Source: Candidatus Saccharimonadota bacterium | GTDB lineage: Bacteria; Patescibacteriota; Patescibacteriia; 2-12-FULL-60-25 | NCBI GenBank assembly: GCA_963718585.1 | Contig: OY970357.1 | Coordinates: forward strand, 1-32,000 | Direction of reading: 5' to 3' | DNA: 32,000 nucleotides | Shown here: positions 1 through 23,259 of the stretch, in pieces | Layout: every line of letters starts with the position of its first letter | How positions within the stretch are numbered: position 1 is the first letter of the stretch | Notes under the pieces: generated by a model | What the model was told of the DNA's origin: nothing | The model's input: the letters and a program-made list of their open reading frames with translations, nothing else | Databases searched by the model: none | Position numbers and translations under genes: made by a program

Positions 1-3000
1 ACCACCAACCTCACGGCCACCTCCGGCACCATCACCACCCTCAACAACACCACGTTGAACGGTGGGAATGCGACGTTCGACAACACGACGACCACCAACC
101 TCGCCGTCACCGGCCAGTCGAATCTCAACACGGTCTCATCCACGGCCATCTCGACGACCGACCTCACGGCCACCAACGGAACCTTCACGAACAGCACGTC
201 CACCAACTTCACCACCACGAACGCGACGGCGACCAATCTCTCGGTCACGAACCTGACCGTCACCGGCAACGCTCCAGCCTCCTTCGCGAACCTCACCTGG
301 ACCAATGCGACGGGGACCAACACCACCTCGACGAATCTCTTTGCCGTGAATGGGACGACGCTTGATCAATATGTCACGAACCTCACGGTGACCGGCACAT
401 CGAACCTCCAGAACACCACCTTTACCAATGCGACCGGCACGACCCTCGTCGTGACGAACGGGACCCTCACCAATGGGACCATCTCGAACCTCTCCTTCAC
501 CAATGGCACCTCCACGGGTTGGTTCGGCTTCGATACCGCCAGCGGCACCACCCTCAATGTCCTCACCTTGAACGCCTCCAACCTCACGACCCCGAATGCG
601 GTCATCACCGGCGGCACGATCGACAACACGGCGATCGGTCTCACGACTCCGTCCACGGCCATCTTCACGGACACGACCTCGACGAACAGCACCAGTACCA
701 ATCTGTATGCCACGAATGCGACCTTCCAGAACCTGACGGTCCTGGGTTCTGCCCCCTCCAACCTCACGAACCTCACCTGGACCAACGCGACGGGGACCAA
801 CACCACATCGACCAATCTCTTTGCCACGAACTTCACGGCCACCAACGGTGATCTCTCCGCCCTCACCTTCACCAATGGCACCTCCACGGACTGGTTCGGG
901 TTCGGGACTGCGAGCGGGACGAGCCTCTTCGCCTCCTCCGTCCAGGTGAACGGAACGAACGTGTGTCTGAAGGATGGCACCAATTGTCCGGGCGGGGTCT
1001 CGACCTCGACCTTCCAAGATGTGACTGATGTGGGATATGTCACGACGAATGCGATCCAGTTCAATGGAGGATCTTCCACTGCTGACTTCCTGCCCACCCA
1101 GGATGCCTCGTTCTCCCTCGGGAGTTCGACGGAACGCTGGAATGCCTTCCTCGCCTCGGTCACAGCCACGACCTTGGGGGTCACAGGCACGACCACGCTC
1201 CAGGACCTCGTCGTGAATGGATCCACGAGTCTTCAGAACGTCACCTTCCTGAACGCGACTGGCACCGGTCTCTTCGTCGACAACCTCAACGCCACGAATG
1301 CGCTTTTCACGAACGCGACCTCCACCAATTTCAACACCACCAACCTCACGGCCACCTCCGGCACCATCACCACCCTCAACAACACCACGTTGAACGGTGG
1401 GAATGCGACGTTCGACAACACGACGACCACCAACCTCGCCGTCACCGGCCAGTCGAATCTCAACACGGTCTCATCCACGGCCATCTCGACGACCGACCTC
1501 ACGGCCACCAACGGAACCTTCACGAACAGCACGTCCACCAACTTCACCACCACGAACGCGACGGCGACCAATCTCTCGGTCACGAACCTGACCGTCACCG
1601 GCAACGCTCCAGCCTCCTTCGCGAACCTCACCTGGACCAATGCGACGGGGACCAACACCACCTCGACGAATCTCTTTGCCGTGAATGGGACGACGCTTGA
1701 TCAATATGTCACGAACCTCACGGTGACCGGCACATCGAACCTCCAGAACACCACCTTTACCAATGCGACCGGCACGACCCTCGTCGTGACGAACGGGACC
1801 CTCACCAATGGGACCATCTCGAACCTCTCCTTCACCAATGGCACCTCCACGGGTTGGTTCGGCTTCGATACCGCCAGCGGCACCACCCTCAATGTCCTCA
1901 CCTTGAACGCCTCCAACCTCACGACCCCGAATGCGGTCATCACCGGCGGCACGATCGACAACACGGCGATCGGTCTCACGACTCCGTCCACGGCCATCTT
2001 CACGGACACGACCTCGACGAACAGCACCAGTACCAATCTGTATGCCACGAATGCGACCTTCCAGAACCTGACGGTCCTGGGTTCTGCCCCCTCCAACCTC
2101 ACGAACCTCACCTGGACCAACGCGACGGGGACCAACACCACATCGACCAATCTCTTTGCCACCAACTTCACGGCCACCAACGGTGATCTCTCCGCCCTCA
2201 CCTTCACCAATGGCACCTCCACGGACTGGTTCGGGTTCGGGACTGCGAGCGGGACGAGCCTCTTCGCCTCCTCCGTCCAGGTGAACGGAACGAACGTGTG
2301 TCTGAAGGATGGCACCAATTGTCCGGGCGGGGTCTCGACCTCGACCTTCCAAGATGTGACTGATGTGGGATATGTCACGACGAATGCGATCCAGTTCAAT
2401 GGAGGATCTTCCACTGCTGACTTCCTGCCCACCCAGGATGCCTCGTTCTCCCTCGGGAGTTCGACGGAACGCTGGAATGCCTTCCTCGCCTCGGTCACAG
2501 CCACGACCTTGGGGGTCACAGGCACGACCACGCTCCAGGACCTCGTCGTGAATGGATCCACGAGTCTTCAGAACGTCACCTTCCTGAACGCGACTGGCAC
2601 CGGTCTCTTCGTCGACAACCTCAACGCCACGAATGCGCTTTTCACGAACGCGACCTCCACCAATTTCAACACCACCAACCTCACGGCCACCTCCGGCACC
2701 ATCACCACCCTCAACAACACCACGTTGAACGGTGGGAATGCGACGTTCGACAACACGACGACCACCAACCTCGCCGTCACCGGCCAGTCGAATCTCAACA
2801 CGGTCTCATCCACGGCCATCTCGACGACCGACCTCACGGCCACCAACGGAACCTTCACGAACAGCACGTCCACCAACTTCACCACCACGAACGCGACGGC
2901 GACCAATCTCTCGGTCACGAACCTGACCGTCACCGGCAACGCTCCAGCCTCCTTCGCGAACCTCACCTGGACCAATGCGACGGGGACCAACACCACCTCG

Positions 3001-3637
3001 ACGAATCTCTTTGCCGTGAATGGGACGACGCTTGATCAATATGTCACGAACCTCACGGTGACCGGCACATCGAACCTCCAGAACACCACCTTTACCAATG
3101 CGACCGGCACGACCCTCGTCGTGACGAACGGGACCCTCACCAATGGGACCATCTCGAACCTCTCCTTCACCAATGGCACCTCCACGGGTTGGTTCGGCTT
3201 CGATACCGCCAGCGGCACCACCCTCAATGTCCTCACCTTGAACGCCTCCAACCTCACGACCCCGAATGCGGTCATCACCGGCGGCACGATCGACAACACG
3301 GCGATCGGTCTCACGACTCCGTCCACGGCCATCTTCACGGACACGACCTCGACGAACAGCACCAGTACCAATCTGTATGCCACGAATGCGACCTTCCAGA
3401 ACCTGACGGTCCTGGGTTCTGCCCCCTCCAACCTCACGAACCTCACCTGGACCAACGCGACGGGGACCAACACCACATCGACCAATCTCTTTGCCACCAA
3501 CTTCACGGCCACCAACGGTGATCTCTCCGCCCTCACCTTCACCAATGGCACCTCCACGGACTGGTTCGGGTTCGGGACCGCAAGTGGGACGAGCCTCTTC
3601 GCCTCCTCCGTCCAGGTGAACGGAACGAACGTGTGTC
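1..3637. repeat. In-frame 1335-bp tandem repeat array (445 aa per unit): two full copies plus a 967-bp third copy, starting mid-unit at the window edge
   Basis: Nt 1, 1336 and 2671 are in register. The ORF-track translations of all frames are identical between copies except for one base (g828 vs c2163). Copy 3 shows its first differences near 3579 and diverges after 3637. Confidence 0.95.
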
Positions 3638-6600
3638 TCGTCGATGGGACGAACTGTCCTGGGGCCCCTGCGACGACGGCAACGCTTCAGATCATCACGG
3701 ACAACGGGAACACGACGACGAACGCCATCCAGTTCGCCGGAGGGACGAGTACGGGGGACTTGGCCGTGACAGGGAACCAGATCACATTGGAGAACAACGA
3801 TGCACAGAATGCGGCTCTGCTGATCAAGGATGCGACCACCGCGGCAGATGGGGCTGGTCCGGCGATCATCCTTCAGAATGACGTTAGCCAGGATTATTTC
3901 ACGAAGTTCTCGAGCGGGGACTCCGGTCAACCAAATTCGCTTCTTATCCAACAGAATGGAGCGACCGGTAACCTGATCTTAGGTTCAGCGAGTGGAAGCA
4001 TCCTTTTCTGGGGCGGCCTCCCTGGCGGTTCACTGACGCAGCTCGGCTTCTTCGCCTCCTCCGGTGTGCTCACGATCGGTGCGGAATCCACCAGTCATGG
4101 CTTGAATGCGCAAGGCGACCTTATTGCGAATGCGGGAGAGTTCAACGGGAGTTTGTATGCGGACGGCTCGTTGACCGTCGCAGGATATAGCAGTCTCAAT
4201 GGATTGAATTGGACATCGGCATCCGGGACCAACACCACATCGACCAATCTCTTTGCCACGAACTTCACGGCCACCAACGGTGATCTCTCCGCCCTCACCT
4301 TCACCAATGGCACCTCCACGGACTGGTTCGGGTTCGGGACTGCGAGCGGGACGAGCCTCTTCGCCTCCTCCGTCCAGGTGAACGGAACGAACGTGTGTCT
4401 TGCGAATGGGACGAATTGTCCGGCAGGGTCAACGACCTCCTCTCTTGCCCAGGTCACGGCCGCAGGCGCCACCACCACGGACATCATCTACGCGCTCGGC
4501 GGCATCCAGACCCTGAACCTCACGGCGACCGGGTCGCTTGCGGTCAGCGGGACGTCGACCCTCTCCGGATCCCTGGACGTCACGGGCCAGACCACGCTCG
4601 CGGATGTCACGGGCCAGAGTGCGACCTTCACCAACCTCGCCGTCACCGGCCAGTCCAACCTCACCAACGTCTCTTCGACCAACCTCTCTGCATCGGGGAA
4701 CGCGACCATCGGAGGAACGCTCGCGGTCTCCGGCTCCTCCACCGTCTCCGGCGCCCTCAACGTCTCCGGTGACACTTCCCTCCAGAACGCCCTCTTCGTG
4801 GATGCGACCGGCACGAACCTCGCGCTCCTCGGTCTCCTCACGGCACCCTCCGCCTCGTTCACGGATCTCTTTGCCACGAACGCGACGACCACCAACAGTA
4901 CCTCCACCAATCTCTTTGCCACCAATGCCACGATCACGAACCTGAACGTCTCGAACTTCACGCCGACCGATATCACCTGGGTCCATGCGACCGGGACATA
5001 TACCACCACCACGGATCTCGGCGTCCTGGGATATATCGACACAGACCTCCTCCCGTCCCTTGATGCCGCCCTCTCCATCGGCTCTTCCGGCCTCCGGTGG
5101 AATGGGATCTTCGCGAACACCACCTCGACGAACGCCACCACCACGAACTTGTATGCCACGAACGGTTCCATCCTGAACGCCTCGACCACCAACCTCACGG
5201 CCACCTCCGGCACCATCACCACCCTCAACAACACCACCTTGAACGGAGGGAATGCCACGTTCGACAACACGACGACCACCAACCTCGCCGTGACGGGCCA
5301 GTCCAACCTCAACAACGTCTCTTCGACCAACCTCTCTGCCACGAACGGGACGATCACCGACCTCACGGCGAACTCTTCCACCATCACCACCCTCAACAAC
5401 ACCACCTTGAACGGAGGGAATGCCACGTTCGACAACACGACGACCACGAACGCGAACACCACCGACCTCACGGCCACCAATGCCACGGTCACGAACCTCA
5501 CGGTCTCGAGCCTCACCCTCACCGGGTCCACCCCATCTTCCTTCACGAACCTCATCTGGACCAATGCGACGGGGACCAACACCACCTCGACGAACCTCTT
5601 CGCTGTGAACGGGACGACGCTTGATCAATATGTCACGAACCTCACGGTGACCGGCACATCGAACCTCCAGAACGCCACCTTCACCAATGCGACCGGCACG
5701 ACCCTCGTCGTGACGAACGGGACCCTCACCAACGGCACCATCTCGAACCTCTCCTTCACCAATGGCACCTCCACCGGCTGGTTCGGGTTCGAGACCGCTT
5801 CCGGCACCACCCTCAATGTCCTCACGTTGAATGCCTCGAACCTCACGACCCCGAATGCGGTCATCACCGGAGGTACGATCGACAACACGGCCATCGGTCT
5901 CACGACCCCTTCGACCGCCATCTTCACGGACACCACCTCCACCAACAGCACCAGTACCAACCTGTATGCCACGAATGCGACCTTCCAGAACCTGACGGTC
6001 CTGGGTTCTGCCCCCTCCAACCTCACGAACCTCACCTGGACCAACGCGACGGGGACCAACACCACATCGACCAATCTCTTCGCCACGAACTTCACGGCCA
6101 CCAACGGTGATCTCTCCGCCCTCACCTTCACCAATGGCACCTCCACGGACTGGTTCGGGTTCGGGACTGCGAGCGGCACCAGCCTCCTTGCCTCCTCCGT
6201 CCAGGTGAACGGAACGAACGTCTGTCTCGCAGACGGGACGAACTGTCCCGGTTCCCCTGCGACGACGGCAACGCTTCAGATCATCACAGACAACGGGAAC
6301 ACGACGACGAACGCCATCCAGTTTGCCGGAGGGACATCGACCGGGAACTTCAATCCCGGCACGAACGATGCCTATGCGCTGGGGTCGAGTTCGACCCGGT
6401 GGTCCGACCTGTGGACCGCGAATCTCCATCTTGGGACCTCGACGTGGGATCTGACACAGGGCGCGAACGGCCGATTGTCCATTTCCAATCAAGGGAGTAG
6501 CTACTTTACGGTCCTCCAGAATGGGAACGTCGGCGTCGGGACCTCGACGCCGCTCACCGCGTTCCAGGTCGCGGGGACCTCGACACTGCAGGATCTTGTC

Positions 6601-8868
6601 CCGGCGTATGATCTGGCATACAGTCTTGGTTCCTACGCACAGCGATGGAACGAAGGGTGGTATGGTCAGATCAATGCGACCAGCGTGAACGCAACGAACG
6701 CGACGTTCAGTTCCATCACGATCTCTGGAACATCGCCGTCGGCGTTCGAGAACTTGAGCTGGACAAATGCGACGGGGACCAATACCACTTCCACGAATCT
6801 CGCGGTCCTCGGCGGTTTGACGCTCCCGGCCGACAGCGTCACAGACGCCATGGTCTCGGACACGATCAGTGTCGGATCGGGCGGGAACGTCTCGGCGGAC
6901 GCCGTGAATTCTGGGACGCTCGGGAACTCCAACGTCACGCTCGACTTGAGCGGGTTCGGGAGCGTTGCCGGTACATTGTCCGCGGATCAGATCACGTTTC
7001 CATCGACGAACACGTCGCAGGTCAATTCGGTCCAATATCTTTATAATCTTGCGATCTCACCGGCGATCGTATCCGGCGGCGACTACGTCCAGACTGCGAG
7101 CGGGACGTTCCAGATCAGCGCCGGTCGCGGGTATATCGGGACGGACCCGACGGATGTCACGGCCAACATCGACCTCGTGGATTGGGCGACGTCGACGATC
7201 AATTTGACCGGGAATGATTGGCTTTCCGTCGCGGTCTATTACAACAACGGTGATCCCATCATCGTATCGACGGCCACGGATACGTATGATAACTACGAAT
7301 ATCTCAAGATCGCGAAGGTTCGGAACAAGGGGAACGGCGAGATGGATTACCACGATGATCGCTTGCTCCGACCGCGTCCGATCCAGCGCCTCCAGCAGTT
7401 CTTCGAGGAGAACATCAAGCACACGGTCACGAACGGATGTGTCGCTTCCGTGACAGGGGCGTTGAATCTCGCGGTCAGTGCGTGCACGGAGTGGTATGGG
7501 ACAGATGAAAAGATTTTGTCAGCCATCGACACATCGAGCGGGGATTCGCTCAACGTATTCGTTCGGAACGGTTCGGGAGGGTATTACGATGAGGCGACCA
7601 CGACCGTCCTGGACACGACGCATTACGATGATAATAGCGGGACCCTGGCGTCTCTCGGATCCGGGGAATATGGGAACCTGTGGATCTATGAGGAGGAAGA
7701 CGGTCACGTCGATGTTCTCTTTGGCCATCAATCATTCACGGACCTCACCTCCGCGGAGGCGGAGGCACAGCCTGGCACGCTTCCGACCCAGTTGCAGGAT
7801 TTCGAGCACGGATTCCTGATCGCACGAATGACCTTTTTGAAAGGTGATACGTCAGCGCAGCATATCGCGGATCTGCGTCCGATCCTGGTCCGTCAGGACG
7901 TCGTTACCGGCGGTGGCATCACGGATCACAATGATCTCAACGGCCTCCAAGGCGGTGCTACGGGAGATTACTACCATGTCCGTCGTGACGGGTATGACTT
8001 CTCCGGCCCGCTCGAGTGGAGCGCGAACTTCGGCGGACTCTTCGACCTTCGGAACAATGCGCCGACGGACACGAAGATCACGATCGAGAACCTCGGCGGC
8101 GGGTCTGCAAGCCTCGACATCTCGAGCGGCGGCCTCGAGCTCGCGTCGACGACGCGCATCACGAATGCCGGGTACGGATATCTGACGGGGCTTGATGTCG
8201 GATATGGCGGGATCGTGAATGTCGGGGACATCAGCGGGGTGTCGAATCTGACGGTCACGGGAACGACGTCGCTTGCGGATCTGACCTTCACGAATGCGAC
8301 AGGTGTCAGCGCGACGACGACGAACTTCTACGCGACGAACGGCGCATTCCAGACCTTGACCGTGACGGGTGCCACTCCGTCGAACTTCGCGAATCTCGCA
8401 TGGACCAATGGGACCGGGATCAACACCACATCCACAAATCTCTTCACATCCAATCTCTCGTTCCTCAATGCCTCTGCCACGGCCCTGACGGTCCAAGGAT
8501 CTCCGGTCTGTCTTTTGGACGGAACCAACTGTCCGCCCGGTGCAGGCGTGCCGACATTGGATTATGTCGCCGCCGCAGGGTCGGCGACCACGCACACCCT
8601 CCAGCTCTATGGGGGCTTCCTCGCCGCGTCTTCGACCGTCACCTCATCGCTGAGCGTGGTCGGCGATCTCACGGTCACGGGGGACACATCGCTCCAACAT
8701 GCGCTGTTCGTCGATGCGACGGGAACAGACCTGACCCTCCTGGGGCTCTTCACGGCTCCGAACGCCCAGATCGATGCGCTCTTCGCGACCAATGCGACCA
8801 CGACCAACAGCACGTCGACGAATCTGTACGCGACGAATCTGTACGCGACAAACGGGGCGTTCGACTGA
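1..8868 (+). CDS. Giant Thr/Asn-rich repeat protein, fibre/adhesin-like with phage-tail-fibre-type motifs (5' partial, continues upstream of window)
   Basis: Frame 1 is open from nt 1. Nt 1-54 translate TTNLTATSGTITTLNNTTLN, identical to 1336-1389, so the Met at 55 is internal. More than 2950 codons run to TGA 8866-8868. Recurrent motifs: WTNATGTNTTSTNLFA, NGTNVCLxDGTNCP, D..xLGSSxxRWN, GNVGVGTSTP, HNDLNGLQGGATGDYYH. Confidence 0.85.
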   Translation, partial: TTNLTATSGTITTLNNTTLNGGNATFDNTTTTNLAVTGQSNLNTVSSTAISTTDLTATNGTFTNSTSTNFTTTNATATNLSVTNLTVTGNAPASFANLTWTNATGTNTTSTNLFAVNGTTLDQYVTNLTVTGTSNLQNTTFTNATGTTLVVTNGTLTNGTISNLSFTNGTSTGWFGFDTASGTTLNVLTLNASNLTTPNAVITGGTIDNTAIGLTTPSTAIFTDTTSTNSTSTNLYATNATFQNLTVLGSAPSNLTNLTWTNATGTNTTSTNLFATNFTATNGDLSALTFTNGTSTDWFGFGTASGTSLFASSVQVNGTNVCLKDGTNCPGGVSTSTFQDVTDVGYVTTNAIQFNGGSSTADFLPTQDASFSLGSSTERWNAFLASVTATTLGVTGTTTLQDLVVNGSTSLQNVTFLNATGTGLFVDNLNATNALFTNATSTNFNTTNLTATSGTITTLNNTTLNGGNATFDNTTTTNLAVTGQSNLNTVSSTAISTTDLTATNGTFTNSTSTNFTTTNATATNLSVTNLTVTGNAPASFANLTWTNATGTNTTSTNLFAVNGTTLDQYVTNLTVTGTSNLQNTTFTNATGTTLVVTNGTLTNGTISNLSFTNGTSTGWFGFDTASGTTLNVLTLNASNLTTPNAVITGGTIDNTAIGLTTPSTAIFTDTTSTNSTSTNLYATNATFQNLTVLGSAPSNLTNLTWTNATGTNTTSTNLFATNFTATNGDLSALTFTNGTSTDWFGFGTASGTSLFASSVQVNGTNVCLKDGTNCPGGVSTSTFQDVTDVGYVTTNAIQFNGGSSTADFLPTQDASFSLGSSTERWNAFLASVTATTLGVTGTTTLQDLVVNGSTSLQNVTFLNATGTGLFVDNLNATNALFTNATSTNFNTTNLTATSGTITTLNNTTLNGGNATFDNTTTTNLAVTGQSNLNTVSSTAISTTDLTATNGTFTNSTSTNFTTTNATATNLSVTNLTVTGNAPASFANLTWTNATGTNTTSTNLFAVNGTTLDQYVTNLTVTGTSNLQNTTFTNATGTTLVVTNGTLTNGTISNLSFTNGTSTGWFGFDTASGTTLNVLTLNASNLTTPNAVITGGTIDNTAIGLTTPSTAIFTDTTSTNSTSTNLYATNATFQNLTVLGSAPSNLTNLTWTNATGTNTTSTNLFATNFTATNGDLSALTFTNGTSTDWFGFGTASGTSLFASSVQVNGTNVCLVDGTNCPGAPATTATLQIITDNGNTTTNAIQFAGGTSTGDLAVTGNQITLENNDAQNAALLIKDATTAADGAGPAIILQNDVSQDYFTKFSSGDSGQPNSLLIQQNGATGNLILGSASGSILFWGGLPGGSLTQLGFFASSGVLTIGAESTSHGLNAQGDLIANAGEFNGSLYADGSLTVAGYSSLNGLNWTSASGTNTTSTNLFATNFTATNGDLSALTFTNGTSTDWFGFGTASGTSLFASSVQVNGTNVCLANGTNCPAGSTTSSLAQVTAAGATTTDIIYALGGIQTLNLTATGSLAVSGTSTLSGSLDVTGQTTLADVTGQSATFTNLAVTGQSNLTNVSSTNLSASGNATIGGTLAVSGSSTVSGALNVSGDTSLQNALFVDATGTNLALLGLLTAPSASFTDLFATNATTTNSTSTNLFATNATITNLNVSNFTPTDITWVHATGTYTTTTDLGVLGYIDTDLLPSLDAALSIGSSGLRWNGIFANTTSTNATTTNLYATNGSILNASTTNLTATSGTITTLNNTTLNGGNATFDNTTTTNLAVTGQSNLNNVSSTNLSATNGTITDLTANSSTITTLNNTTLNGGNATFDNTTTTNANTTDLTATNATVTNLTVSSLTLTGSTPSSFTNLIWTNATGTNTTSTNLFAVNGTTLDQYVTNLTVTGTSNLQNATFTNATGTTLVVTNGTLTNGTISNLSFTNGTSTGWFGFETASGTTLNVLTLNASNLTTPNAVITGGTIDNTAIGLTTPSTAIFTDTTSTNSTSTNLYATNATFQNLTVLGSAPSNLTNLTWTNATGTNTTSTNLFATNFTATNGDLSALTFTNGTSTDWFGFGTASGTSLLASSVQVNGTNVCLADGTNCPGSPATTATLQIITDNGNTTTNAIQFAGGTSTGNFNPGTNDAYALGSSSTRWSDLWTANLHLGTSTWDLTQGANGRLSISNQGSSYFTVLQNGNVGVGTSTPLTAFQVAGTSTLQDLVPAYDLAYSLGSYAQRWNEGWYGQINATSVNATNATFSSITISGTSPSAFENLSWTNATGTNTTSTNLAVLGGLTLPADSVTDAMVSDTISVGSGGNVSADAVNSGTLGNSNVTLDLSGFGSVAGTLSADQITFPSTNTSQVNSVQYLYNLAISPAIVSGGDYVQTASGTFQISAGRGYIGTDPTDVTANIDLVDWATSTINLTGNDWLSVAVYYNNGDPIIVSTATDTYDNYEYLKIAKVRNKGNGEMDYHDDRLLRPRPIQRLQQFFEENIKHTVTNGCVASVTGALNLAVSACTEWYGTDEKILSAIDTSSGDSLNVFVRNGSGGYYDEATTTVLDTTHYDDNSGTLASLGSGEYGNLWIYEEEDGHVDVLFGHQSFTDLTSAEAEAQPGTLPTQLQDFEHGFLIARMTFLKGDTSAQHIADLRPILVRQDVVTGGGITDHNDLNGLQGGATGDYYHVRRDGYDFSGPLEWSANFGGLFDLRNNAPTDTKITIENLGGGSASLDISSGGLELASTTRITNAGYGYLTGLDVGYGGIVNVGDISGVSNLTVTGTTSLADLTFTNATGVSATTTNFYATNGAFQTLTVTGATPSNFANLAWTNGTGINTTSTNLFTSNLSFLNASATALTVQGSPVCLLDGTNCPPGAGVPTLDYVAAAGSATTHTLQLYGGFLAASSTVTSSLSVVGDLTVTGDTSLQHALFVDATGTDLTLLGLFTAPNAQIDALFATNATTTNSTSTNLYATNLYATNGAFD
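4224..4400. repeat. Dispersed partial copy of the repeat unit (matches unit positions ~793-980)
   Basis: gggaccaacaccacatcgaccaatctctttgccacgaacttcacggccaccaacggtgatctctcc... is repeated almost verbatim and encodes SGTNTTSTNLFATNFTATNGDLSALTFTNGTSTDWFGFGTASGTSLFASSVQVNGTNVCL. Confidence 0.9.
5178..6245. repeat. Fourth, diverged copy of the 1335-bp unit (with an internally rearranged 5320-5540 segment)
   Basis: The protein segment TNLTATSGTITTLNNTTLNGGNATFDNTTTTNLAVTGQSNLN ... WTNATGTNTTSTNLFAVNGTTLDQYVTNLTVTG ... NGTNVCLADGTNCP is collinear with the unit, with scattered substitutions. Confidence 0.85.
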
Positions 8869-9612
8869 TCTCGCTCGTCACAAATGTTCGCAGGCACGAA
8901 TGTCGTGTGGAGGAATGCGACCGGGACATACACCACCACGACCGACTTCGGCGTGCTTGGGGCATGTCGACACAGACCTCCTCCCGTCCCTTGATGCCGC
9001 GCTTTCTCTTGGGTCCTCCGGCCTTCGCTGGAACGGGATCTTCGCGAACACCACCTCGACGAATGCCACCACCACGAATCTGTATGCAAGAACGGCTCCA
9101 TCTTGAACGCCTCGACGACGGCTCTTACGGCAGCGTCGGGGACGGTCCTGACCCTCAACAACGCGTCTTTGAACGGGGTCAATGCGGCCTTTACCGCGGT
9201 CACGACCACAGGCCTCGTCGTCACGGGCGTGACGGATCTCGGCACCATCACGGCCACGAACGCGGTCTTCGGCAACGTGACTTCGACGAATCTCGTGACC
9301 TTGAACAAGACCGACATCAATGAGCTCACGTTCGTGAATGCGACCGGCACGGGCAACCTCGTCACGACGGGTGTCGGTTTCTTCGACCTTCATCCACGCG
9401 CAGGAATCCACGATCGGCGTGGCGACGGCTTCGATCATTGAACGTGGATCAGGTGCTCCACGTCGGGCGTCGGGCAACTTCCCGATCGTCGGGAACTCCG
9501 TTGCCCAATTCGGTGGCACGACCAATACGTATCTCCAAGTGAATGTGCAGAACCACTCGAGCGGGGACAGCGCTTCGACCGATTTCGTGGCCACGAACGA
9601 TATCGGTGAATG
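8865..9612 (+). pseudogene. Frame-disrupted segment linking the giant ORF to the next ORF (coding sense passes through F1, F0, F1, F2, F1, F2, F0)
   Basis: The segment is collinear with the intact paralogous segment 4920-5230 (VSNFTPTDITWVHATGTYTTTTDLGVLGYIDTDLLPSLDAALSIGSSGLRWNGIFANTTSTNATTTNLYATNGSILNAST) only if single-base indels are allowed near 8865, 8886, 8957-8966 and 9088-9091. Further shifts lie near 9365-9441 and 9600-9612. ORF-track pieces 8774..9106, 9103..9441 and 9338..9613 are fragments of it. Confidence 0.7.
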
Positions 9613-12359
9613 ACTCCAGCTACTACGTCGACCTCGGCATCAATGGCTCCGGATACAACGATCCGGCCTATTCCATCGGCGGTCCGAACACGGCCTACCT
9701 CTATTCCGCCTCCTCCAACCTCACGATCGGCACGGCGAGCGATACGGGCGTCCTCAAGTTCCACGCCGGCGGTACGACCGCGGCAGACGAGGTCATGCGG
9801 ATCACGTATGACCATCTCGTCGGCATCAACACGACCAATCCGTCAGCCACGTTGGATGTCATCGGGGATGGTCGGTTCACGGGCATGCTGACGGTGGGCG
9901 GATATGCGGACTTCCAAAATCTGCACTGGGGTGATGCGTCGGGGACGAACACGACCTCCACCAACTTCTTCGCGACCAATGCGGATCTCACGAACCTGTC
10001 GGTCTCCAACACGGCGACGTTGGCGGGATCCTTCTACGTCCCATCGCTCGGCGGAACCTCGTCCACGAACCAAGACATCGTGAATGATGTGTTGTCGACG
10101 GGTTGGGTTTCGGGTGGTGCCATCACGGACGCTGGAAGCGAGACAGTCAACGTTGCCGCGGGCGTCGGGTATATCCGGCTGGTCAACTCGCCGACAGCGC
10201 AGATCTATCGCATCACCTGGCCGGCGGCGAGCGGCCTGTCGGTCCCGACGAATACGAATCGGAACATCTACATCTCCTACAACAGTGGCGATCCGATCGT
10301 GGTCGCGGATGCGAACGAAGCGCCGAACACGCAGCAGTACATCGAGATCGGTGAGGTCCACAACATCGGCGGGACGCTGGAGATCCACTTCCTCCCGCGC
10401 AATTCCGGAGACATGATGAACCGGATCCAGACCTATACCGCGGCGTTGATCGGGAATCGGATCGCGTCTGGAGAGAACGTCGGTTCTACGAGCACGCGCT
10501 ATATCGAGATCTCTGCCGGGGATATCTGGGACTTCTACTACAACGAGCACCTCACGTCGGATTTCGACTCTGCGACCTCCGGGACGTTCTCGAACTTCTA
10601 CCGGGACGGATCCGGCGGGTTCAACGTGGAGACCGGTCAGACCCAGTGGGAGAATACGAAGATCGATTCGCCGGCCGGGACGCTGACGACCATGACAGAC
10701 GGGTACTATGCGAACCGGTGGGTCATCCGGAACTACAGTGGAGATGTCGGCGTCATCTACGGGACCGCGGAATATGCGACCGAGGCGGATGCCTTGGCCG
10801 CCACCCCGCCCACGGCGCGGCCTGAGCCGTGGGCTGAGCATGGCTGGAACGTCGCGCAGATCGTCTTCCAGAAGAATGCGACCAGTGCGGCCGACATCGT
10901 GAGCATCAAACCGACGATCGGCGGATCGAGCGGGGGCACGACCGGCGGGGGCGTGACCAATCACAACGAGCTTTTCGGCCTTCAAGGCGGTCAGCCGGGC
11001 CAGTATTATCACCTGACCGCGGCGGAGCACAGTTTCCTGACGAACACGTCCACGCCCAGCGACGGGGCGATCCTCTTCAGCGATTCCGCGGGGATCTCCT
11101 ATGATCAGGCCGACTTCACCTGGGATCGGACCTCGAACGTCCTCACCGTGAATGGGGGGATCGTGGCGACCAATGCCACGGCCACGAATCTGTATGCGAC
11201 GGACGCATCCTTTGCAGGCTTGACGGTCGCGGGCGCGACGCCGGCATCCATCGACCAACTCACCTTCGCCGACGGCACTTCTACGGATTGGTTCGGCTTC
11301 GCGACCGCATCCGGCACCGTGCTCCATGCGAATACGCTCTATTCGCCCAACGCCTACCTCACCGGCGGGACGCTGGACAACGTGTCGATCGGGGACATCG
11401 TTCCGGCCGGAGCGGTCTTCACGAAGGTCACGGCAACGAACGCGACCGCCACCACGTTGGCCTTCACCTCGGCTTCCGGATCTTCACTCACGATCGCGGG
11501 ACAAAGCGTCTGTCTGCAAGACGGGACGGACTGCCCGCCGACCCCGACGTTGGCCCAGATCACGGCCGCCGGTGCGACCACGACCGACCTCATCTACGCA
11601 CTCGGCGGGATCCATACGATGAACTTGACCGCCTCCGGCACGCTGGACGTCACCGGACAGACGACCTTGGCGGATCTCACGGCCACGAACGTCACCACCA
11701 CGAACCTCTTTGCGTCAGGCCTTACACAGCTCAACGATCTGCGCGTGACGGGGTCTTCGACGCTTGGGCTGACCTACCTCACTTCGGTCACGACGACAGC
11801 CTTGTCGGTCCCGGGGTACGTGTATACCGATCTGATCCCGTCGGTAGATGCGACACTCGCGCTCGGCTCGTCCGGTCTCCGTTGGAACGCGAACTTCGCG
11901 ACCGTCACGACCACGAACCTGTTCGCGACGACCGTCTCATCGACCAACGGTCTATTCACGAATGTGACGTCCTCCCATCTCTACGCCACGACCGGCGTCA
12001 TGGAGGATCTGACGGCCACGAATGCGCTCTTCACGAACGCGACGGCCACGACATTCACCGCCTTGAGCGACTTCGTGGTCGCAAGTGGGACGACGCGTGC
12101 GGACCTCGGTATCACGGCCTTCCCGGGCCGTGTCGCATCGACGGATGAGGTCGGATTGACCTTGAACAAGAACGCGACCGTCCGGTCCGGTCTCGTCAAT
12201 GAGGTCAGATGGCCAGCTCTTGAGCTTCGCGATCAATGCGAATCAACTCGGGGGTCGTTCGACATCGACGATCGGTGCCATCTTCCGGCTCGATACGCGG
12301 CCAGGGAATCCGTATTGGAATCTCAAACGCCAGCCCGCCACCTCTGGGACGAGTTATGA
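9543..12359 (+). CDS. Fibre-like protein fragment with a globular domain ending in the HNELFGLQGGQPGQYYH motif; the protein-like part is ~9608-12203
   Basis: 938-codon ORF. Content includes NDSSYYVDLGINGSGYNDPAY, VGINTTNPSATLDVIG, a domain paralogous to 7050-7985, VCLQDGTDCP and DATLALGSSGLRWNANF. The first ~20 and last ~50 residues of the ORF-track translation look out of frame (Arg/Cys-rich). Confidence 0.75.
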   Translation: MCRTTRAGTALRPISWPRTISVNDSSYYVDLGINGSGYNDPAYSIGGPNTAYLYSASSNLTIGTASDTGVLKFHAGGTTAADEVMRITYDHLVGINTTNPSATLDVIGDGRFTGMLTVGGYADFQNLHWGDASGTNTTSTNFFATNADLTNLSVSNTATLAGSFYVPSLGGTSSTNQDIVNDVLSTGWVSGGAITDAGSETVNVAAGVGYIRLVNSPTAQIYRITWPAASGLSVPTNTNRNIYISYNSGDPIVVADANEAPNTQQYIEIGEVHNIGGTLEIHFLPRNSGDMMNRIQTYTAALIGNRIASGENVGSTSTRYIEISAGDIWDFYYNEHLTSDFDSATSGTFSNFYRDGSGGFNVETGQTQWENTKIDSPAGTLTTMTDGYYANRWVIRNYSGDVGVIYGTAEYATEADALAATPPTARPEPWAEHGWNVAQIVFQKNATSAADIVSIKPTIGGSSGGTTGGGVTNHNELFGLQGGQPGQYYHLTAAEHSFLTNTSTPSDGAILFSDSAGISYDQADFTWDRTSNVLTVNGGIVATNATATNLYATDASFAGLTVAGATPASIDQLTFADGTSTDWFGFATASGTVLHANTLYSPNAYLTGGTLDNVSIGDIVPAGAVFTKVTATNATATTLAFTSASGSSLTIAGQSVCLQDGTDCPPTPTLAQITAAGATTTDLIYALGGIHTMNLTASGTLDVTGQTTLADLTATNVTTTNLFASGLTQLNDLRVTGSSTLGLTYLTSVTTTALSVPGYVYTDLIPSVDATLALGSSGLRWNANFATVTTTNLFATTVSSTNGLFTNVTSSHLYATTGVMEDLTATNALFTNATATTFTALSDFVVASGTTRADLGITAFPGRVASTDEVGLTLNKNATVRSGLVNEVRWPALELRDQCESTRGSFDIDDRCHLPARYAARESVLESQTPARHLWDEL

Positions 12360-13221
12360 GGTCTCGGATATGCAGATCTCGACCGCCGGAGACATCGGAC
12401 TCGGCGCCGGTCATGCGTCGGACTTGAACAGCTTTGGCGGGCAGGTCCATGTATTCACACGCTCAAGTTCGACCCGGGTCCTTGTCTTGCAGGGGAATGT
12501 CGGCCAGACCGCGAATCTGACGGAATGGTGGAATAGCTCCTCGACGCCGCTCGATGTCGTCACGCCGAACGGGTCGCTCGGGGTCGGGACATCCACCCCG
12601 ACGGACAAGCTCCAGGTCGTCGGTTCCTCACGCTTCAACGGGAGCGTGACGGTCGCATCTGCCGGGACATCGTCCACGGTCGCATGGGCGAATTCGAACT
12701 TGTCCGCGACCGGGATCGAATCGATCCGTTCCTTGGACGTCTTTAATGGATATCTTTACGCCGGCCGGGGAGACAGCGCGGGTGATGGGGATGTGATGAT
12801 CTGCGACCCGAGCGTGGCTGGGGATCCGTCGGTCTGCGACAACGCATCCGACTGGTCGACGTCGTACAATAGCGCCGTGGCGAACAATGTGTTGTCCATG
12901 ATCGAGTACAAAGGCCGGCTCTATACAGGTTCTGGAGATGCGAGCGGGATGGGCGTGATCCGATACTGTAACCCGGCCACGACCGGCGATCCGAACAAGT
13001 GCGACAGCGGGGACTGGGTCACGTCGAATTCGACCGGACGCAATCGGATCTCGGCGTTCGCCGTGTACAACGGATATCTCACCGCCGTCGGGGATAATGG
13101 ATCGTTTAATTCCGGCATCATCTATACCTGTAACCCGGCTGCTGCGGGCAATGCGAATGAGTGTGACAATGCGGCAGATTGGACTAGCGTCAATCTCTCA
13201 TCCGTCGTAAGCGGGATATGA
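12199..13221 (+). CDS. Fibre-like protein fragment: N-terminal LTEWWNSS...GSLGVGTSTPTDKLQV module followed by blades 1-3 of a Cys-pair propeller-like repeat
   Basis: 340-codon ORF in frame 1, closed upstream by TGA 12163-12165. The ~50-aa repeats follow the pattern xxISxxxVFNGYLYAGxGxxxGDGxVxxCDPxxxGDxxxCDNxxDW. The ORF ends in the middle of a repeat at TGA 13219-13221. Confidence 0.75.
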   Translation: MRSDGQLLSFAINANQLGGRSTSTIGAIFRLDTRPGNPYWNLKRQPATSGTSYEVSDMQISTAGDIGLGAGHASDLNSFGGQVHVFTRSSSTRVLVLQGNVGQTANLTEWWNSSSTPLDVVTPNGSLGVGTSTPTDKLQVVGSSRFNGSVTVASAGTSSTVAWANSNLSATGIESIRSLDVFNGYLYAGRGDSAGDGDVMICDPSVAGDPSVCDNASDWSTSYNSAVANNVLSMIEYKGRLYTGSGDASGMGVIRYCNPATTGDPNKCDSGDWVTSNSTGRNRISAFAVYNGYLTAVGDNGSFNSGIIYTCNPAAAGNANECDNAADWTSVNLSSVVSGI

Positions 13222-13261
13222 AGAGATCAACTCCCTCGTCGTCTACCTCAACCGGCTCTAC

Positions 13262-15244
13262 ATGTTCGTCGGGAACTCCGGCGGAGATAACGATATCTTC
13301 GCCTGTGATCCGTCCCAGGGTGGGAATACAGATGCGTGCGACAATGCGTCCGATTGGACTCGTCTCTATAATTCTGCGAACGTCGGGTATAACTCCATCG
13401 TGAGTTCCGCGGTCTTCGACGCGAACCTGTACATGGGCATGGGGAACGGGACCGGCGATGGCGACCTGGTCGAATGTAATCCGACGTACGCCGGCGACCT
13501 GTCGCTCTGTGACAACGCGGGCGACTTCAACAATTTCACGCCGACCATCAATAACGGTGGGACGATCTCGACGTTGGCCGCCATGGCGAACTACGACGGG
13601 ACCCTCATGATCGGGATGGCCGGGACAGCGTCTGGGGATGGGCAGATCGACGAGGTCCGTAAGACATACTCAGTGACCTCGAATTCCGGTACCGGCTTCC
13701 AGGCCACGTACGCCTTCACGGTTTACAACGGGTATCTCTATGCCGGCCGTGGGAACGCGAGCGGCAATGGTCAGGTGTGGTACTACCATCGCGCGCGTTC
13801 CGTGAGCAATAAGCTCAACTTCGAGACGAACTCCAGCACGGCATCCATCTGGTACGACAATTCGTCGTACAACAATACGCAGGTCGGTGATCAAGGGCTG
13901 CAGAGCGGCGTGTTCAAATTCTCGCAAGGCATCATCACGTCCGCGGGGTCTTACGACTTGGCCGAGTCCTATACGGCGTCTGAGGCGGGTCTCGAGGCCG
14001 GGGACGTCGTCGCATCGGACCAGAAGCTCAATGCGAGCGTCCGCCGTTCGGACAAGGCCTATGATCCGTATGCCTTCGGTGTCGTCTCGACCAAGCCGGG
14101 GTTCCTCCTTTCGTCGGATGATCAGACCGGGACCGTACCGGTGGCGCTGACCGGCCGCGTTCCTGTGAAGTTCTCGGCCGAGAATGGTCCGGTCCAGCCG
14201 GGCGATGCCCTGACCGCGGCAAATATCCCAGGGTATGCGATGAAGGCGACGGCAGACGGCCCGATGATCGGTCGTGCGCTCGCCGGCTTCAAGATCGACG
14301 ATGGCACGGCGACCTCGACCGCGACAGGGACGGTGCTCATGCTCGTTCAGGCGGGGTATCACATGTCTGCATCGAGCGCGGACAGTCTCTCACAGCTCAT
14401 GACCGGTTCCGGCAGTTCGACCGGGGATGCGCTCCAGTCGCCTGGCGCGACCCCGGAGACGGCCCTCCCGGCCGGATCGCAGATCTCCCAGGGGCTCGGC
14501 GTGCTGACGCTCGTCGCGCGTGACGCCACGTTCACGGGGAATGTCACGGTCCTTGGCCCGATCACCTTGCGCGGACCCGTGGTCCTCGGCGCGTCCAATG
14601 CCGGACGCGTGAAGGTCGATCCGGGCGACTACATCATCAACGTCCTCTTCCCGAAGACCTATCCCATCCCGCCGCACGTCTTCGCCACGCCAGAGATCGT
14701 CGATGTGTCGGGCGGGACCGGCTTCGATCATGCGGAATGGGATGGCGCATACTATCTCGCAAATGTGACGACGACCGGATTCACCATCGAACTTCCGGGT
14801 GGCGGGTACTGCCCGACCTACACGATCAAACCATGCCCGATCGAGCTCTACTTCAACTGGTTCGTCGTCGGCTTCGAAGACACGTCCGGGACCCCGGCCA
14901 CGGCACAGACCGCGCCGAGCGAGGGGAATCCGACATCGACCACCACATCATCCGGCACGACGTCCGGAACCCCAACGACGGATCCCACGGGATCTGGGAC
15001 GATATCAAGCACGACATCAGGGTCGACCACGGGCACGCCGCCGGCAGATCCGACGCCGTCCGGGAGTTCGACGACGACATCTTCTGGGACGACGTCAGGA
15101 ACGCCGACATCCCCGACGAGTGGAAGTTCCTCGACAAGCACCTCCAGCGGCACGCCGCCGGCAGATCCGACGCCGTCCGGGAGTTCGACGGCGACATCGG
15201 ATCCCGCTCCGCCCACCGACACATCTTCGACGTCAACGCCGTAA
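13262..15244 (+). CDS. Fibre-like protein fragment: propeller-like blades 4-7, a conserved C-terminal globular region and a Thr/Ser/Pro-rich tail
   Basis: 660-codon ORF in frame 2. The frame is open upstream of the Met and there reads GYEEINSLVVYLNRLY, the missing start of blade 4. The C-terminus is low-complexity TSGTP/PPADPTPSGSST. Confidence 0.75.
   Translation: MFVGNSGGDNDIFACDPSQGGNTDACDNASDWTRLYNSANVGYNSIVSSAVFDANLYMGMGNGTGDGDLVECNPTYAGDLSLCDNAGDFNNFTPTINNGGTISTLAAMANYDGTLMIGMAGTASGDGQIDEVRKTYSVTSNSGTGFQATYAFTVYNGYLYAGRGNASGNGQVWYYHRARSVSNKLNFETNSSTASIWYDNSSYNNTQVGDQGLQSGVFKFSQGIITSAGSYDLAESYTASEAGLEAGDVVASDQKLNASVRRSDKAYDPYAFGVVSTKPGFLLSSDDQTGTVPVALTGRVPVKFSAENGPVQPGDALTAANIPGYAMKATADGPMIGRALAGFKIDDGTATSTATGTVLMLVQAGYHMSASSADSLSQLMTGSGSSTGDALQSPGATPETALPAGSQISQGLGVLTLVARDATFTGNVTVLGPITLRGPVVLGASNAGRVKVDPGDYIINVLFPKTYPIPPHVFATPEIVDVSGGTGFDHAEWDGAYYLANVTTTGFTIELPGGGYCPTYTIKPCPIELYFNWFVVGFEDTSGTPATAQTAPSEGNPTSTTTSSGTTSGTPTTDPTGSGTISSTTSGSTTGTPPADPTPSGSSTTTSSGTTSGTPTSPTSGSSSTSTSSGTPPADPTPSGSSTATSDPAPPTDTSSTSTP
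15032..15190. repeat. Perfect 42-bp direct repeat (15032-15073 and 15149-15190) in the Thr/Ser/Pro-rich tail
   Basis: ggcacgccgccggcagatccgacgccgtccgggagttcgacg occurs twice, 117 bp apart, and encodes GTPPADPTPSGSST. Confidence 0.9.
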
Positions 15245-15309
15245 CGAGCGAAATCCTACAGAACGGGTAGCCGCGGCAAAGAAAGACGTGGTATACTTCT
15301 AAAAACAGT

Positions 15310-16122
15310 ATGAAAGAAACCGTACCCTCACGTCGTCGCCGAACCTCGCGAACGACGCCACCACCACCCCCGCCTGGGAATCCTATGCCGTCCGCTACAA
15401 AGATGCCGTCACCCCCTAAAGGGGCGACACGGCTGTCGACGCTTTCTGTCGCGCTCCTCGTCCTCATTTTGGTCACGGCGGCGATCCTCTGGGCTGTCAG
15501 TACGCTCCAGAAGCCGTCATCATCCTCAGCAACGGGGGAGAGTGCCGCATCAAAGGACGTGCAGACCCTGATCTCTGACGTGAGTCGGCACATCGTGGTC
15601 AAACAGGATGAACAGCCGACCGTCGCGACGGTGCAAGATGCGGACCTGCTCCGTAAGCAGAACCCGGAATTCTACAAGGATGCACAGAATGGCGATCGGT
15701 TGTTGATCTGGTCTGACAAAGCGGTCTTATATTCGTCGTCCCGTGATCTGATCCTGTCTGTGTTGCCGATCAATCTCCCAGTCAATGCCGCGACATCGAC
15801 GAACACGACGACGACCAGTCAGACGTCGCAGCAGGAGAACGCGACGATCGAGGTGCGGAACGGTTCTGGTGTCGCTGGCCAAGCGGGCTTGCTCGTGACC
15901 AAGCTGAAAGGGGAGGGGATGACCGTACTGACGCCCACGGATGCCCGTGTGAAGACGCGGTATCCCAAGACCTTGGTCGTTAATGCATCCGGCAAGGAGC
16001 TCCCCGCGACGTTGAAGGCGCTTCAGAGCGCAACCGGCGGGCAGGTAAGCAGTGCGCCGGCCGGTGAAGAGCCGATCAAGGGAGATGTCCTGGTGATCAT
16101 CGGGACGGATTATACGAACTAG
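15310..16122 (+). CDS. Membrane-anchored LytR_C (LytR/CpsA/Psr C-terminal) domain protein
   Basis: Pro-rich N-terminus, a single TM helix (LSVALLVLILVTAAILWAV), and a C-terminal IEVRNGSGVAGQAGLLVTKLKGEGMTV...GDVLVIIGTDY typical of LytR_C. Confidence 0.75.
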   Translation: MKETVPSRRRRTSRTTPPPPPPGNPMPSATKMPSPPKGATRLSTLSVALLVLILVTAAILWAVSTLQKPSSSSATGESAASKDVQTLISDVSRHIVVKQDEQPTVATVQDADLLRKQNPEFYKDAQNGDRLLIWSDKAVLYSSSRDLILSVLPINLPVNAATSTNTTTTSQTSQQENATIEVRNGSGVAGQAGLLVTKLKGEGMTVLTPTDARVKTRYPKTLVVNASGKELPATLKALQSATGGQVSSAPAGEEPIKGDVLVIIGTDYTN

Positions 16123-16531: not shown

Positions 16532-16605
16532 AGGACGATGGGTTGGATCCAACAGCGGGTGTACATCGCCCGCTGTTCCGTTATAGTGGCTTCATTCTCG
16601 GCTTT

Positions 16606-18091: not shown

Positions 18092-18184
18092 TGAAATCAC
18101 CCTCCTTTCTTTTTGTTCGTCCCGACAATTATCGAGATCGATGTCGCGACCTGCGTGCGACGCAAGGTCATCGAACATGACATG

Positions 18185-18210
18185 AGTATAACATACTTTT
18201 TGCGTGTCAA
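18185..18210 (-). promoter_or_regulatory. Candidate promoter for the histone-like gene (extended -10 TGTTATACT, TTGACA upstream with a short 14-nt spacer)
   Basis: The minus strand reads TTGACAcgcaaaaagtaTGtTATACT. Sequence pattern only. Confidence 0.3.
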
Positions 18211-23253: not shown

Positions 23254-23259
23254 ATGTTC

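Follow-up and report, generated by a model that had tools for sequence, protein, structure and literature searches.

How ultrasmall bacteria belonging to the candidate phyla radiation, or CPR (Patescibacteria), find and hold their hosts is, to our knowledge, largely unknown beyond the Saccharibacteria, for which type IV pili are implicated in host attachment. The question takes a concrete form in bases 1-15244 of contig OY970357.1 (assembly GCA_963718585.1), which are filled with Thr- and Asn-rich reading frames of phage-tail-fibre type: do these frames belong to one gene or to several, to a cell or to a phage, and what might their product do? The whole stretch analysed, referred to below as the window, comprises 32,000 nucleotides with a G+C content of about 60% and contains the gene in question minus its 5′ end, the start codon, the signal peptide and the upstream genes lying upstream of it. 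In the reading favoured here, to which a probability of roughly 0.65 is assigned, a Candidatus Uhrbacteria-like CPR bacterium carries on its chromosome a single gene of which bases 1-15244 represent the 3′ 15.2 kb, and whose product would be a secreted giant fibre, at least 5,077 amino acids long and of broadly the same kind as the mosaic adhesive trimer (MAT) fibres of Bdellovibrio, cellular proteins that are put together from building blocks of phage tail fibres or tailspikes.

The coding region is distributed over the following pieces.

1-8865, + strand: main open frame, truncated at its 5′ end, 2,955 codons in frame 1 (open reading frame scan).
8866-9610, + strand: cluster of lesions throughout which coding sense persists (homology to a paralogous segment at 4960-5260 and to the intact relatives P0006 and P0019 continues across the frame switches).
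9609-12206, + strand: frame-3 segment of the giant fibre gene (homology to an orthologue).
12208-13215, + strand: frame-1 segment, entered via a 1-nt insertion at 12207, carrying the third capping-loop motif (12571-12624) and the start of the propeller-like repeats.
13217-15241, + strand: frame-2 segment running up to the true stop codon TAA (15242-15244).

Judged by sequence comparison, the reading frames between 1 and 15244 are pieces of one gene of more than 5,077 codons, because intact CPR relatives hold the whole architecture in a single open reading frame (ORF). The same order of modules is found uninterrupted in P0019 (2,824 aa) and in the related loci L006 (3,348 aa), L009 (3,200 aa), L010 (3,108 aa) and L012 (2,815 aa). 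The main open frame is collinear with residues 371-1096 of P0019 (41% identity over 759 columns, E 2e-147), and a second alignment with this orthologue (797 columns, 42% identity) runs as a single high-scoring segment pair through the frame change at 13216. An arrangement of several separate genes is rejected, as the orthologues consist of one ORF, the downstream fragments have neither a start context nor a signal peptide, and no promoter-like site was found in 8700-15500.

The homologous frames were stitched together into a conceptual protein of 5,077 aa, on which all motifs were counted. Its composition is dominated by Thr (18.9%), Gly (10.6%), Ser (10.0%) and Asn (9.7%), which together make up 49% of the residues. 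NxS/T sequons occur 241 times versus 139 ± 10 expected from composition, and 161 times versus 98 ± 8 expected if only the unique part of the conceptual protein is considered; this enrichment may be a mere effect of the repeat structure or may point to N-glycosylation of the shaft. The N-terminal part of the visible protein is built from long tandem units, and short modules with paired cysteines recur along the chain.

1-3577, + strand: near-identical tandem shaft units of 1,335 nt (445 aa), with copy 1 at 1-1335, copy 2 at 1336-2670 and copy 3 from 2671.
955-993, + strand: Cys-pair module 1 (TNVCLKDGTNCPG), a putative disulphide staple closing a shaft unit.
2290-2328, + strand: Cys-pair module 2.
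3625-3663, + strand: Cys-pair module 3.
4387-4425, + strand: Cys-pair module 4.
6214-6252, + strand: Cys-pair module 5.
8500-8538, + strand: Cys-pair module 6.
11502-11540, + strand: Cys-pair module 7.

Between the first two copies of the 1,335-nt unit there is one silent base change (unit position 828; 828 versus 2163), while copy 3 equals copy 2 exactly over about 907 nt (one difference from copy 1) and is divergent beyond; diverged copies of the unit are present at 5185-6266. The copies are distinct within the assembly and are extremely young or homogenised, and the array may extend upstream of the window. All 28 cysteines (codons between 964 and 14834) fall into 14 short-range pairs, namely seven of the type C-x6-C, five C-x10-C in the blades of the propeller-like domain, one C-x14-C in globular module 1 and one C-x7-C in the lectin-like domain. 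Such exclusively short-range pairing is as expected of an extracytoplasmic, disulphide-stapled protein, with the bonds themselves predicted from the spacing. The Cys-pair pattern xxVCLxDGTxCP, observed seven times at the positions listed, arose five times when the sequence was shuffled 2,000 times, a rate of about 0.0025 per shuffle.

The original prediction, made from the letters of the DNA alone, had assigned all frames in 1-15244 to one Thr/Asn-rich family of shared motifs and composition. This assignment holds and can be extended, since the frames are not independent ORFs, which that prediction had not noted, and form a single gene. Its motif inventory was largely reproduced as well. The WTNATGTNTTSTNLFA-type unit, said to recur more than ten times, is present in 11 copies, and all seven Cys-pair modules were recovered with their cysteines where they had been placed. 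GxxGVGTSTPxxxxQV motifs are present in two copies (nt 6523 and 12571) with one variant, HLVGINTTNPSATLDV, at 9813, and HNxLxGLQGG..YYH in two copies (nt 7927 and 10962). The D..x[LI]GSxxxRW[NS] motif is likewise real, and its count has to be corrected from five to seven (nt 1102, 2437, 5062, 6364, 6610, 8993 and 11847).

A link to MAT fibres is provided by a module located downstream of the tandem units.

6307-6618, + strand: MAT-type β-helix 'capping-loop' module (NDAYALGSSSTRW ... GNVGVGTSTPLTAFQV), assigned by its match to the Bd2133 structure 8OND.

With its sequence alone, this GNVGVGTSTPLTAF module finds 8OND, the crystal structure solved for Bd2133 of Bdellovibrio, at E 8.4e-5. With a six-sequence profile of the capping-loop module (A5) the match is improved to 4.4e-15, and 8OML (1.8e-9), 8OJN (4.6e-7), 8OL4 (6.7e-5) and 8ON4 (2e-3) are found in addition. 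The GxVGIGTxxP motif of the window corresponds to the MAT capping-loop consensus V-G-G/N-π-x-x-P-x-x-x-L defined in PMC10769870, the feature by which a MAT shaft unit is recognised. For the GSSxxRW half of the module, a weak alignment with gp28, a fibre protein of cyanophage P-SCSP1u, was obtained.

Two globular modules and one further conserved module follow.

6808-8010, + strand: globular tail-fibre-type module 1, ending HNDLNGLQGGATGDYYH (sequence relatives, AlphaFold2 model, Foldseek).
9377-9884, + strand: 'VSSTFIHAQE ... NDSSYYVDLGINGSGYN ... HLVGINTTNPSATLDV' module, present in all orthologues, the first part of which lies inside the lesion cluster.
10020-11108, + strand: second globular module of tail-fibre type (HNELFGLQGGQPGQYYH), paralogous to module 1 (BLASTP, 32% identity, E 7e-41).

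Globular module 1 has 2,632 representative relatives at E <= 1e-3. When 68 of the shorter relatives were scanned, 39 proved to match phrog_5668, the 'tail fiber protein' family, with a best E of 2.7e-51; the module itself matches none of the PHROG family hidden Markov models (HMMs) at E <= 0.001, and the connection to phrog_5668 is transitive via these relatives. Mtd_N, Gp53-like_C, BclA_C and C1q are found as companion domains in the relatives, and tblastn with the module retrieves annotated phage tail-fibre genes at 22-28% identity. The AlphaFold2 model (pLDDT 82.8) superposes on predicted viral proteins in Foldseek searches (E 1.2e-25, TMq 0.5-0.65), the best matches among solved structures being the phi812 baseplate, the tail fibre of Haloferax virus HFTV1 and the fibre of cyanophage A-1(L). 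Searches of PDB sequences with phmmer returned nothing for 6241-8865, 13262-15241 or the 445-aa unit.

The last part of the chain comprises four elements.

12712-13786, + strand: about seven repeats, each 50-55 aa long (xYNGxLYxGxGxxxGDGxxxxC-x10-C-DxxxDW); five of the blades hold a Cys pair apiece, and the frame change at 13216 falls inside.
13955-14404, + strand: 'DLAESY' domain, a phi29 gp12-type auto-chaperone-like β-domain (AlphaFold model, Foldseek, profile A3).
14600-14881, + strand: H-type-lectin-like β-sandwich with one Cys pair (sub-threshold Pfam match, Foldseek).
14882-15241, + strand: Ser/Thr/Pro-rich low-complexity tail of about 120 aa.

From their sequence pattern, the repeats at 12712-13786 are predicted to form a β-propeller-like domain. 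The model of the C-terminal region reaches a pLDDT of 78, with both the DLAESY and the lectin-like domain above 90. The DLAESY domain, which begins with Y|DLAESY at 13955, resembles the released C-terminal fragment of phi29 gp12 (3GQH_A; TMt 0.55, root-mean-square deviation 4.6 Å over 181 columns, probability 1.0, E 1.5e-3) and 3SUC (E 1.3e-3), and its fold matches phage capsid cement proteins too. In a 46-sequence profile (A3) the motif DlAEsy is aligned to residues 1-7 of 3GQH_A (DFAEYFE) at E 0.005, the D and E of the DxAE motif being nearly invariant across the 46 homologues. By tblastn the domain is found in proteins annotated as tail-fibre or virion proteins in two groups of phages, the PA5oct-like ones of Pseudomonas and the CP220-like ones of Campylobacter. 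In gp12 the corresponding domain is a β-stranded intramolecular chaperone that is freed by autoproteolysis (PMC4690869).

The lectin-like domain scores 20-21 bits with Pfam H_lectin (PF09458; E 3.6e-4 to 7.6e-4) and stays below the gathering threshold of 24 bits. Its model is matched by Helix pomatia agglutinin (2CCV, TMt 0.52), 4Q56 (TMt 0.50) and discoidin II (2VM9), with probabilities of 0.9-1.0 and E-values of 0.04-0.25, and also by the R2 pyocin fibre tip (6CL6), the phi297 tailspike (4RU5) and the receptor-binding domain of the Pam1 tailspike. At the level of the modelled fold, this H-lectin-like sandwich would correspond to the variable adhesive C-terminal tip that characterises MAT fibres. 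The tail at 14882-15241 contains no LPXTG motif and no transmembrane segment; the tails of orthologues are Pro/Glu/Thr-rich.

To which genome such a fibre belongs is indicated by its surroundings, in which two neighbours are conserved and a further gene pair is found in relatives.

15310-16122, + strand: membrane-anchored LytR_C-domain protein, conserved neighbour (Pfam E 4e-10; adjoins the fibre gene in 9 related loci).
16543-17847, + strand: PHP-like protein of 434 aa, conserved neighbour (63-70% identity in 8 related loci).
L004 6822-8843, L012 6424-8477, L010 6708-8484 and 19455-21199, L017 6727-8572: dockerin-like/cohesin-like gene pair in relatives (both Pfam matches sub-threshold).

As in the window, the fibre gene stands beside LytR_C and PHP-like genes in L004-L009, L011 and L012, with the LytR_C gene downstream of the fibre gene in the window, L004 and L012 and upstream in the other syntenic loci. 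The contigs of these relatives measure 260 kb to 1.3 Mb and are named Ca. Uhrbacteria, Parcubacteria or Patescibacteria; the close relatives over the globular module (42-45% identity) all lie on contigs of metagenome-assembled genomes (MAGs) with these names. Two of the loci, L005 and L008, were deposited as 'uncultured Gammaproteobacteria' MAGs yet show a CPR-type neighbourhood (fibre, LytR_C and PHP-like genes in L005; fibre and LytR_C genes in L008, where a match to the PHP-like gene was not detected), and they are probably mis-binned CPR contigs. Further genes of the window flank encode HhH-GPD, NUDIX, CCA-adding enzyme, TrmB, 2-hydroxyacid dehydrogenase, PfkB, DUF2207 and RRM proteins and two tRNAs. 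No PHROG matches were obtained for genes of the 17-kb downstream flank, no capsid, terminase, portal, baseplate, sheath or integrase gene was found there or in the 10-kb flanks of the relatives, and no close relative was found in IMG/VR. By this shared gene neighbourhood, the fibre gene is cellular and vertically kept.

At the N-terminus of the orthologues stands a Sec-type signal peptide with an AxA site, e.g. ...KPSAVQA|SIPTTLGYQGRL, followed by a conserved β-type 'YQGRL' domain of about 130-150 aa, and secretion of the window's fibre is predicted by analogy with them. A search with the N-terminal domain of one orthologue for a link to the MAT N-domain gave eight unnamed matches. Immediately ahead of every giant gene of the closest syntenic relatives lie a dockerin-like gene (about 270 aa; Dockerin_1 E 0.003) and a cohesin-like gene (about 410 aa with a C-terminal transmembrane segment; Cohesin E 1e-4), and it is plausible from these domain matches that the pair forms a docking system for the fibre. 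The Ca. Uhrbacteria contig JACRQE010000002.1 carries two giant fibre genes in tandem (L010 8927-18253, 3,108 aa; L012 8759-17206, 2,815 aa), each with its own dockerin-like/cohesin-like pair.

The broader claims of the original prediction can be assessed on this basis. That the locus is built from phage-tail-fibre-type modules agrees with phrog_5668 in 39 of 68 relatives, with Foldseek matches at E 1e-25 and with the MAT, gp12, lectin and pyocin-tip matches; HMM and structure searches relate the globular, capping-loop and C-terminal modules to fibre folds and leave the shaft without a solved homologue. The motifs that it described as typical of tail fibres are recognised only weakly by curated phage profiles in direct scans. 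Housekeeping flanks free of phage genes were seen over the downstream 17 kb, the 5′ side lying outside the window. The proposal of a cell-encoded fibre is strengthened by the LytR_C/PHP-like synteny, the chromosomal position being kept in at least eight CPR loci on contigs of up to 1.3 Mb with flanks lacking PHROG matches, and the CPR organism that it considered agrees with the assignment of every close relative to Ca. Uhrbacteria, Parcubacteria or Patescibacteria.

Taken together, a putative mode of action can be outlined. The precursor would be exported by the Sec pathway, the signal peptide being seen in orthologues only, and three chains would form an intertwined β-structured shaft, as suggested by the homology of the GxVGIGTxxP motif to trimeric MAT (and phage) β-helices. 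The gp12-type auto-chaperone-like domain may nucleate trimerisation and may cleave itself off at Y|DLAE, and the 14 short-range Cys pairs would provide disulphide staples outside the cell. By analogy with MAT fibres the N-terminal domain of about 130 aa, located outside the window, would anchor the fibre on the cell, possibly assisted by the cohesin-like membrane protein and the dockerin-like protein encoded upstream in the closest syntenic relatives. The distal parts, i.e. the two globular modules, the propeller-like domain of about seven blades and the lectin-like domain, would then bind glycans or proteins on the surface of a host or partner cell, with glycans as the probable ligands and the globular modules as the less certain binders, while recombination between the near-identical 445-aa units could change the length of the shaft. 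Bd2133 spans 142 Å with 370 aa (PMC10769870); by rough extrapolation at about 0.4 Å per residue the giant fibre would reach a length in the order of 200 nm, comparable to the diameter of a CPR cell. Models supply the folds of both C-terminal domains and of the globular module; ligand binding is predicted, and an adhesin role is probable by analogy. A bolder version is tentative and, as a whole, rather doubtful: that Uhrbacteria-type CPR bacteria domesticated phage receptor-binding machinery as a conserved chromosomal host-capture apparatus, with a trimeric fibre about 200 nm long, adjusted in length through the 445-aa units, a sequon-laden and possibly N-glycosylated shaft, a lectin and propeller tip, a dedicated cohesin/dockerin-like docking pair encoded directly upstream and frameshift clusters, here and in two relatives, that represent real on/off or population variation of a host-range determinant.

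Several observations weigh against the giant MAT-kind fibre. As assembled, the gene cannot yield a full-length protein, and frame-broken fibre genes in two relatives, L004 and L011, leave room for a real instability. Scans of all fibre pieces with Pfam, NCBIfam and PHROGs gave nothing above threshold, the only sub-threshold library matches being H_lectin, phrog_19602 and phrog_18345. For the Thr/Asn-rich shaft, about half of the protein, no solved homologue was detected with phmmer of the 445-aa unit and a shaft-unit profile against PDB sequences, and Foldseek assigns the C-terminal domains E-values of no more than modest strength (1e-3 to 5e-2). Finally, the gp12-like domain is the last domain in many homologues and is not terminal in the window, where about 290 residues come after it (linker, H-lectin-like domain and Ser/Thr/Pro-rich tail), so that self-cleavage would detach the lectin-like domain. 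Either the subfamily would forgo cleavage, or the C-terminal fragment would remain attached.

The first of these points leads to the most serious alternative, a genuine possibility although not a probable one, in which both the stop at 8866 and the frameshifts exist in the organism and the gene is a recently inactivated pseudogene or in a phase-variable OFF state, giving at most a truncated fibre without the chaperone/lectin end. The lesions were mapped by alignment of 8800-9200 to the paralogue at 4960-5260, in which +1 and -1 indels are seen, by tblastn with the intact homologue P0006 and by three-frame reading. The cluster contains an in-frame TGA (8866-8868) and frame changes near 8962 (+1), 9089 (-1), 9376, 9440 (+T), 9473 (+2) and 9608 (+A); isolated frame changes are found beyond it at 12207 (extra A) and 13216, giving a total of one TGA and at least eight small indels. 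TGA is a genuine stop in this genome, where it ends 5 of 16 flanking genes, and an alternative code with TGA as a sense codon is thereby ruled out. There are no homopolymer runs of five or more in 8866-9610, and long homopolymers are absent at all of the lesions; homopolymer-type sequencing error is thus unsupported as the cause of the lesions, and the indels are not typical errors of this type. The genes of the 17-kb flank show no interruption and agree at 100% identity with an independent Logan assembly of ERR11571143, and are thus error-free; no Logan proteins from the fibre gene itself were among the similarity-search matches. The same contrast of a frame-broken fibre gene between intact neighbouring genes is found in L004 (9600-10050) and L011 (about 9350; end of ORF 9341-15805). 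Moreover, the downstream pieces have no promoter-like site or signal peptide for separate expression.

Against this reading stands the distribution of the lesions. About 8 of 10 lesions fall inside 745 nt of 6,375 nt and 2 in the following 5.6 kb, for which the chance under uniform neutral decay is about 1e-6 (binomial estimate from the lesion coordinates). Because the lesions are so tightly clustered, a local consensus problem or a local biological process is indicated, and not uniform decay. The downstream 5.6 kb retains its 42% identity to P0019 (797 columns) without further stops and so does not give the impression of drift. Consensus errors are common in strain-variable genes of long-read assemblies, and the broken gene of L011 lies on a 1.3-Mb contig that is probably long-read, to judge from the isolate name. 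The tight clustering suggests that a local consensus error in a hypervariable gene fits better than neutral decay, with a local biological process as the alternative.

The favoured adhesive fibre has also to be weighed against a structural component of the envelope (a spacer, a sheath of fibres or a coat resembling an S-layer, for example), which would provide a fuzzy surface or cell spacing without a defined ligand. The huge size, the repetitive Thr/Asn/Ser/Gly-rich and, with 241 sequons, probably glycosylatable chain and the synteny with a LytR_C envelope protein would suit such a function, and a fibrous surface has been ascribed to giant proteins in a CPR bacterium (PMC8080830). However, several of the modules, including the lectin-like terminal domain, are receptor-binding parts in phage fibres, pyocins and MAT adhesins, and the architecture differs among relatives, which carry one or two globular modules and different tips, a variation typical of host-range determinants; a purely structural role is therefore considered unlikely. 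A phage-derived element, i.e. a prophage or tailocin fibre gene or remnant amid housekeeping genes, is very improbable and largely refuted. In its favour, the more distant relatives of the globular module in sequence and fold are mainly phage tail-fibre proteins and the DLAE domain occurs in phage fibres; against it, the closest relatives are cellular CPR proteins, virion genes and an integrase were not found in the flanks listed above, the chromosomal position is shared by at least eight CPR genomes, no close relative was found in IMG/VR and the Sec signal peptides of the orthologues would be needless for virion fibres assembled in the cytoplasm.

Three further features of the flank were observed. 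At 17915-18235 on the - strand an ORF of 106 aa encodes a Lys/Ala/Pro-rich histone-H1-like tail, (KRKAAPKRKPA)n, derived from a tandem repeat in the DNA, with no Pfam or PHROG match. At 18431-18697 on the + strand lies the gene for an 88-aa single-domain RRM_1 RNA-binding protein (Pfam E 2.5e-23), which is kept near the locus in L004. Between the genes for tRNA-Cys and the TrmB-type regulator about 1 kb (22956-23900) is without a convincing ORF and is uncalled in the Logan contig L002 as well; Rfam found only tRNA in the gene-free stretch of 22.6-24.0 kb, even at E <= 1.

As a giant, cell-encoded MAT-kind fibre, the product of the locus typifies a family of giant exported fibres, conserved and in synteny among Uhrbacteria and Parcubacteria, that shares building blocks, at the sequence level, with phage receptor-binding proteins and with the experimentally characterised prey-recognition fibres of Bdellovibrio. 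It offers a concrete candidate for host recognition in an uncultured lineage and extends the reach of phage-fibre 'domestication' by cells living on other cells. The gene might also serve as a marker, in which module swaps and changes in repeat number could track host range. For annotation it is a warning, as frame errors and repeats tend to split such genes into many 'hypothetical' ORFs.

No prior description of phage-fibre-like giant proteins in CPR was found in the literature searched. Giant envelope proteins of 1,392-4,163 aa with a proposed role in host recognition and attachment are known from the CPR predator Vampirococcus lugosii (PMC8080830); the fibre described here resembles them as a giant envelope protein of a CPR bacterium with a proposed host-attachment role, whereas they contain WD40, PKD, integrin, fibronectin and DUF11-type domains and a phage-fibre architecture is unreported for them (PMC8080830). 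With phage fibres of phrog_5668 and related receptor-binding proteins (uncultured Caudovirales; fibre/virion proteins of Stenotrophomonas phage DLP_6 and Rhodobacteraceae phage LS06) the HNxLxGLQGG..YYH globular module is shared, but the gene of the window does not belong to a phage genome, exceeds those genes in length by an order of magnitude, encodes a product predicted from its orthologues to be Sec-exported and carries a module below the PHROG threshold. The phi29 gp12 pre-neck appendage, a tailspike (3GQH, 3SUC), resembles the DLAESY domain in its β-fold (TMt 0.55) and in the D-x-A-E start at the boundary of the released fragment; in contrast, the two sequences are barely similar (E 0.005), the domain of the window is trailed by about 290 residues, and its cleavage and chaperone activity are putative.

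The closest known kind of fibre is that of the Bdellovibrio bacteriovorus MAT proteins, e.g. Bd2133 and Bd3182 (Caulton et al. 2024, PMC10769870), which sit on the surface of the predator and of which one member binds prey glycans (PMC10769870). Compared with these, the fibre of the window is 3-5 times longer (at least 5,077 aa versus about 1,000 aa), its shaft is Thr/Asn- and sequon-rich with Cys-stapled 445-aa tandem units, and two phrog_5668-type globular modules and a Cys-paired propeller-like domain are added. A phi29 gp12-type domain stands in place of S74 and is followed by the H-lectin-like domain and the Ser/Thr/Pro-rich tail; no Pfam match to Peptidase_S74 at E <= 0.1 is present in the conceptual protein, and in Bdellovibrio the S74 peptidase/chaperone terminus is found in 13 of 21 MAT members and is not obligatory (PMC10769870). 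The host lineage differs as well, being monoderm CPR; MAT-like proteins have been tabulated from other predators and Omnitrophica, none from CPR (PMC10769870). Common to both, as far as sequence and models indicate, are cell encoding, Sec export and a β-rich N-terminal domain of about 130 aa after the signal peptide (here seen in orthologues, homology of the N-domains not being established), a shaft of phage-type β-helix units with the capping-loop motif at the sequence level, and swappable adhesive lectin-type C-terminal tips with an intramolecular chaperone in many members, in organisms that both live on other bacteria.

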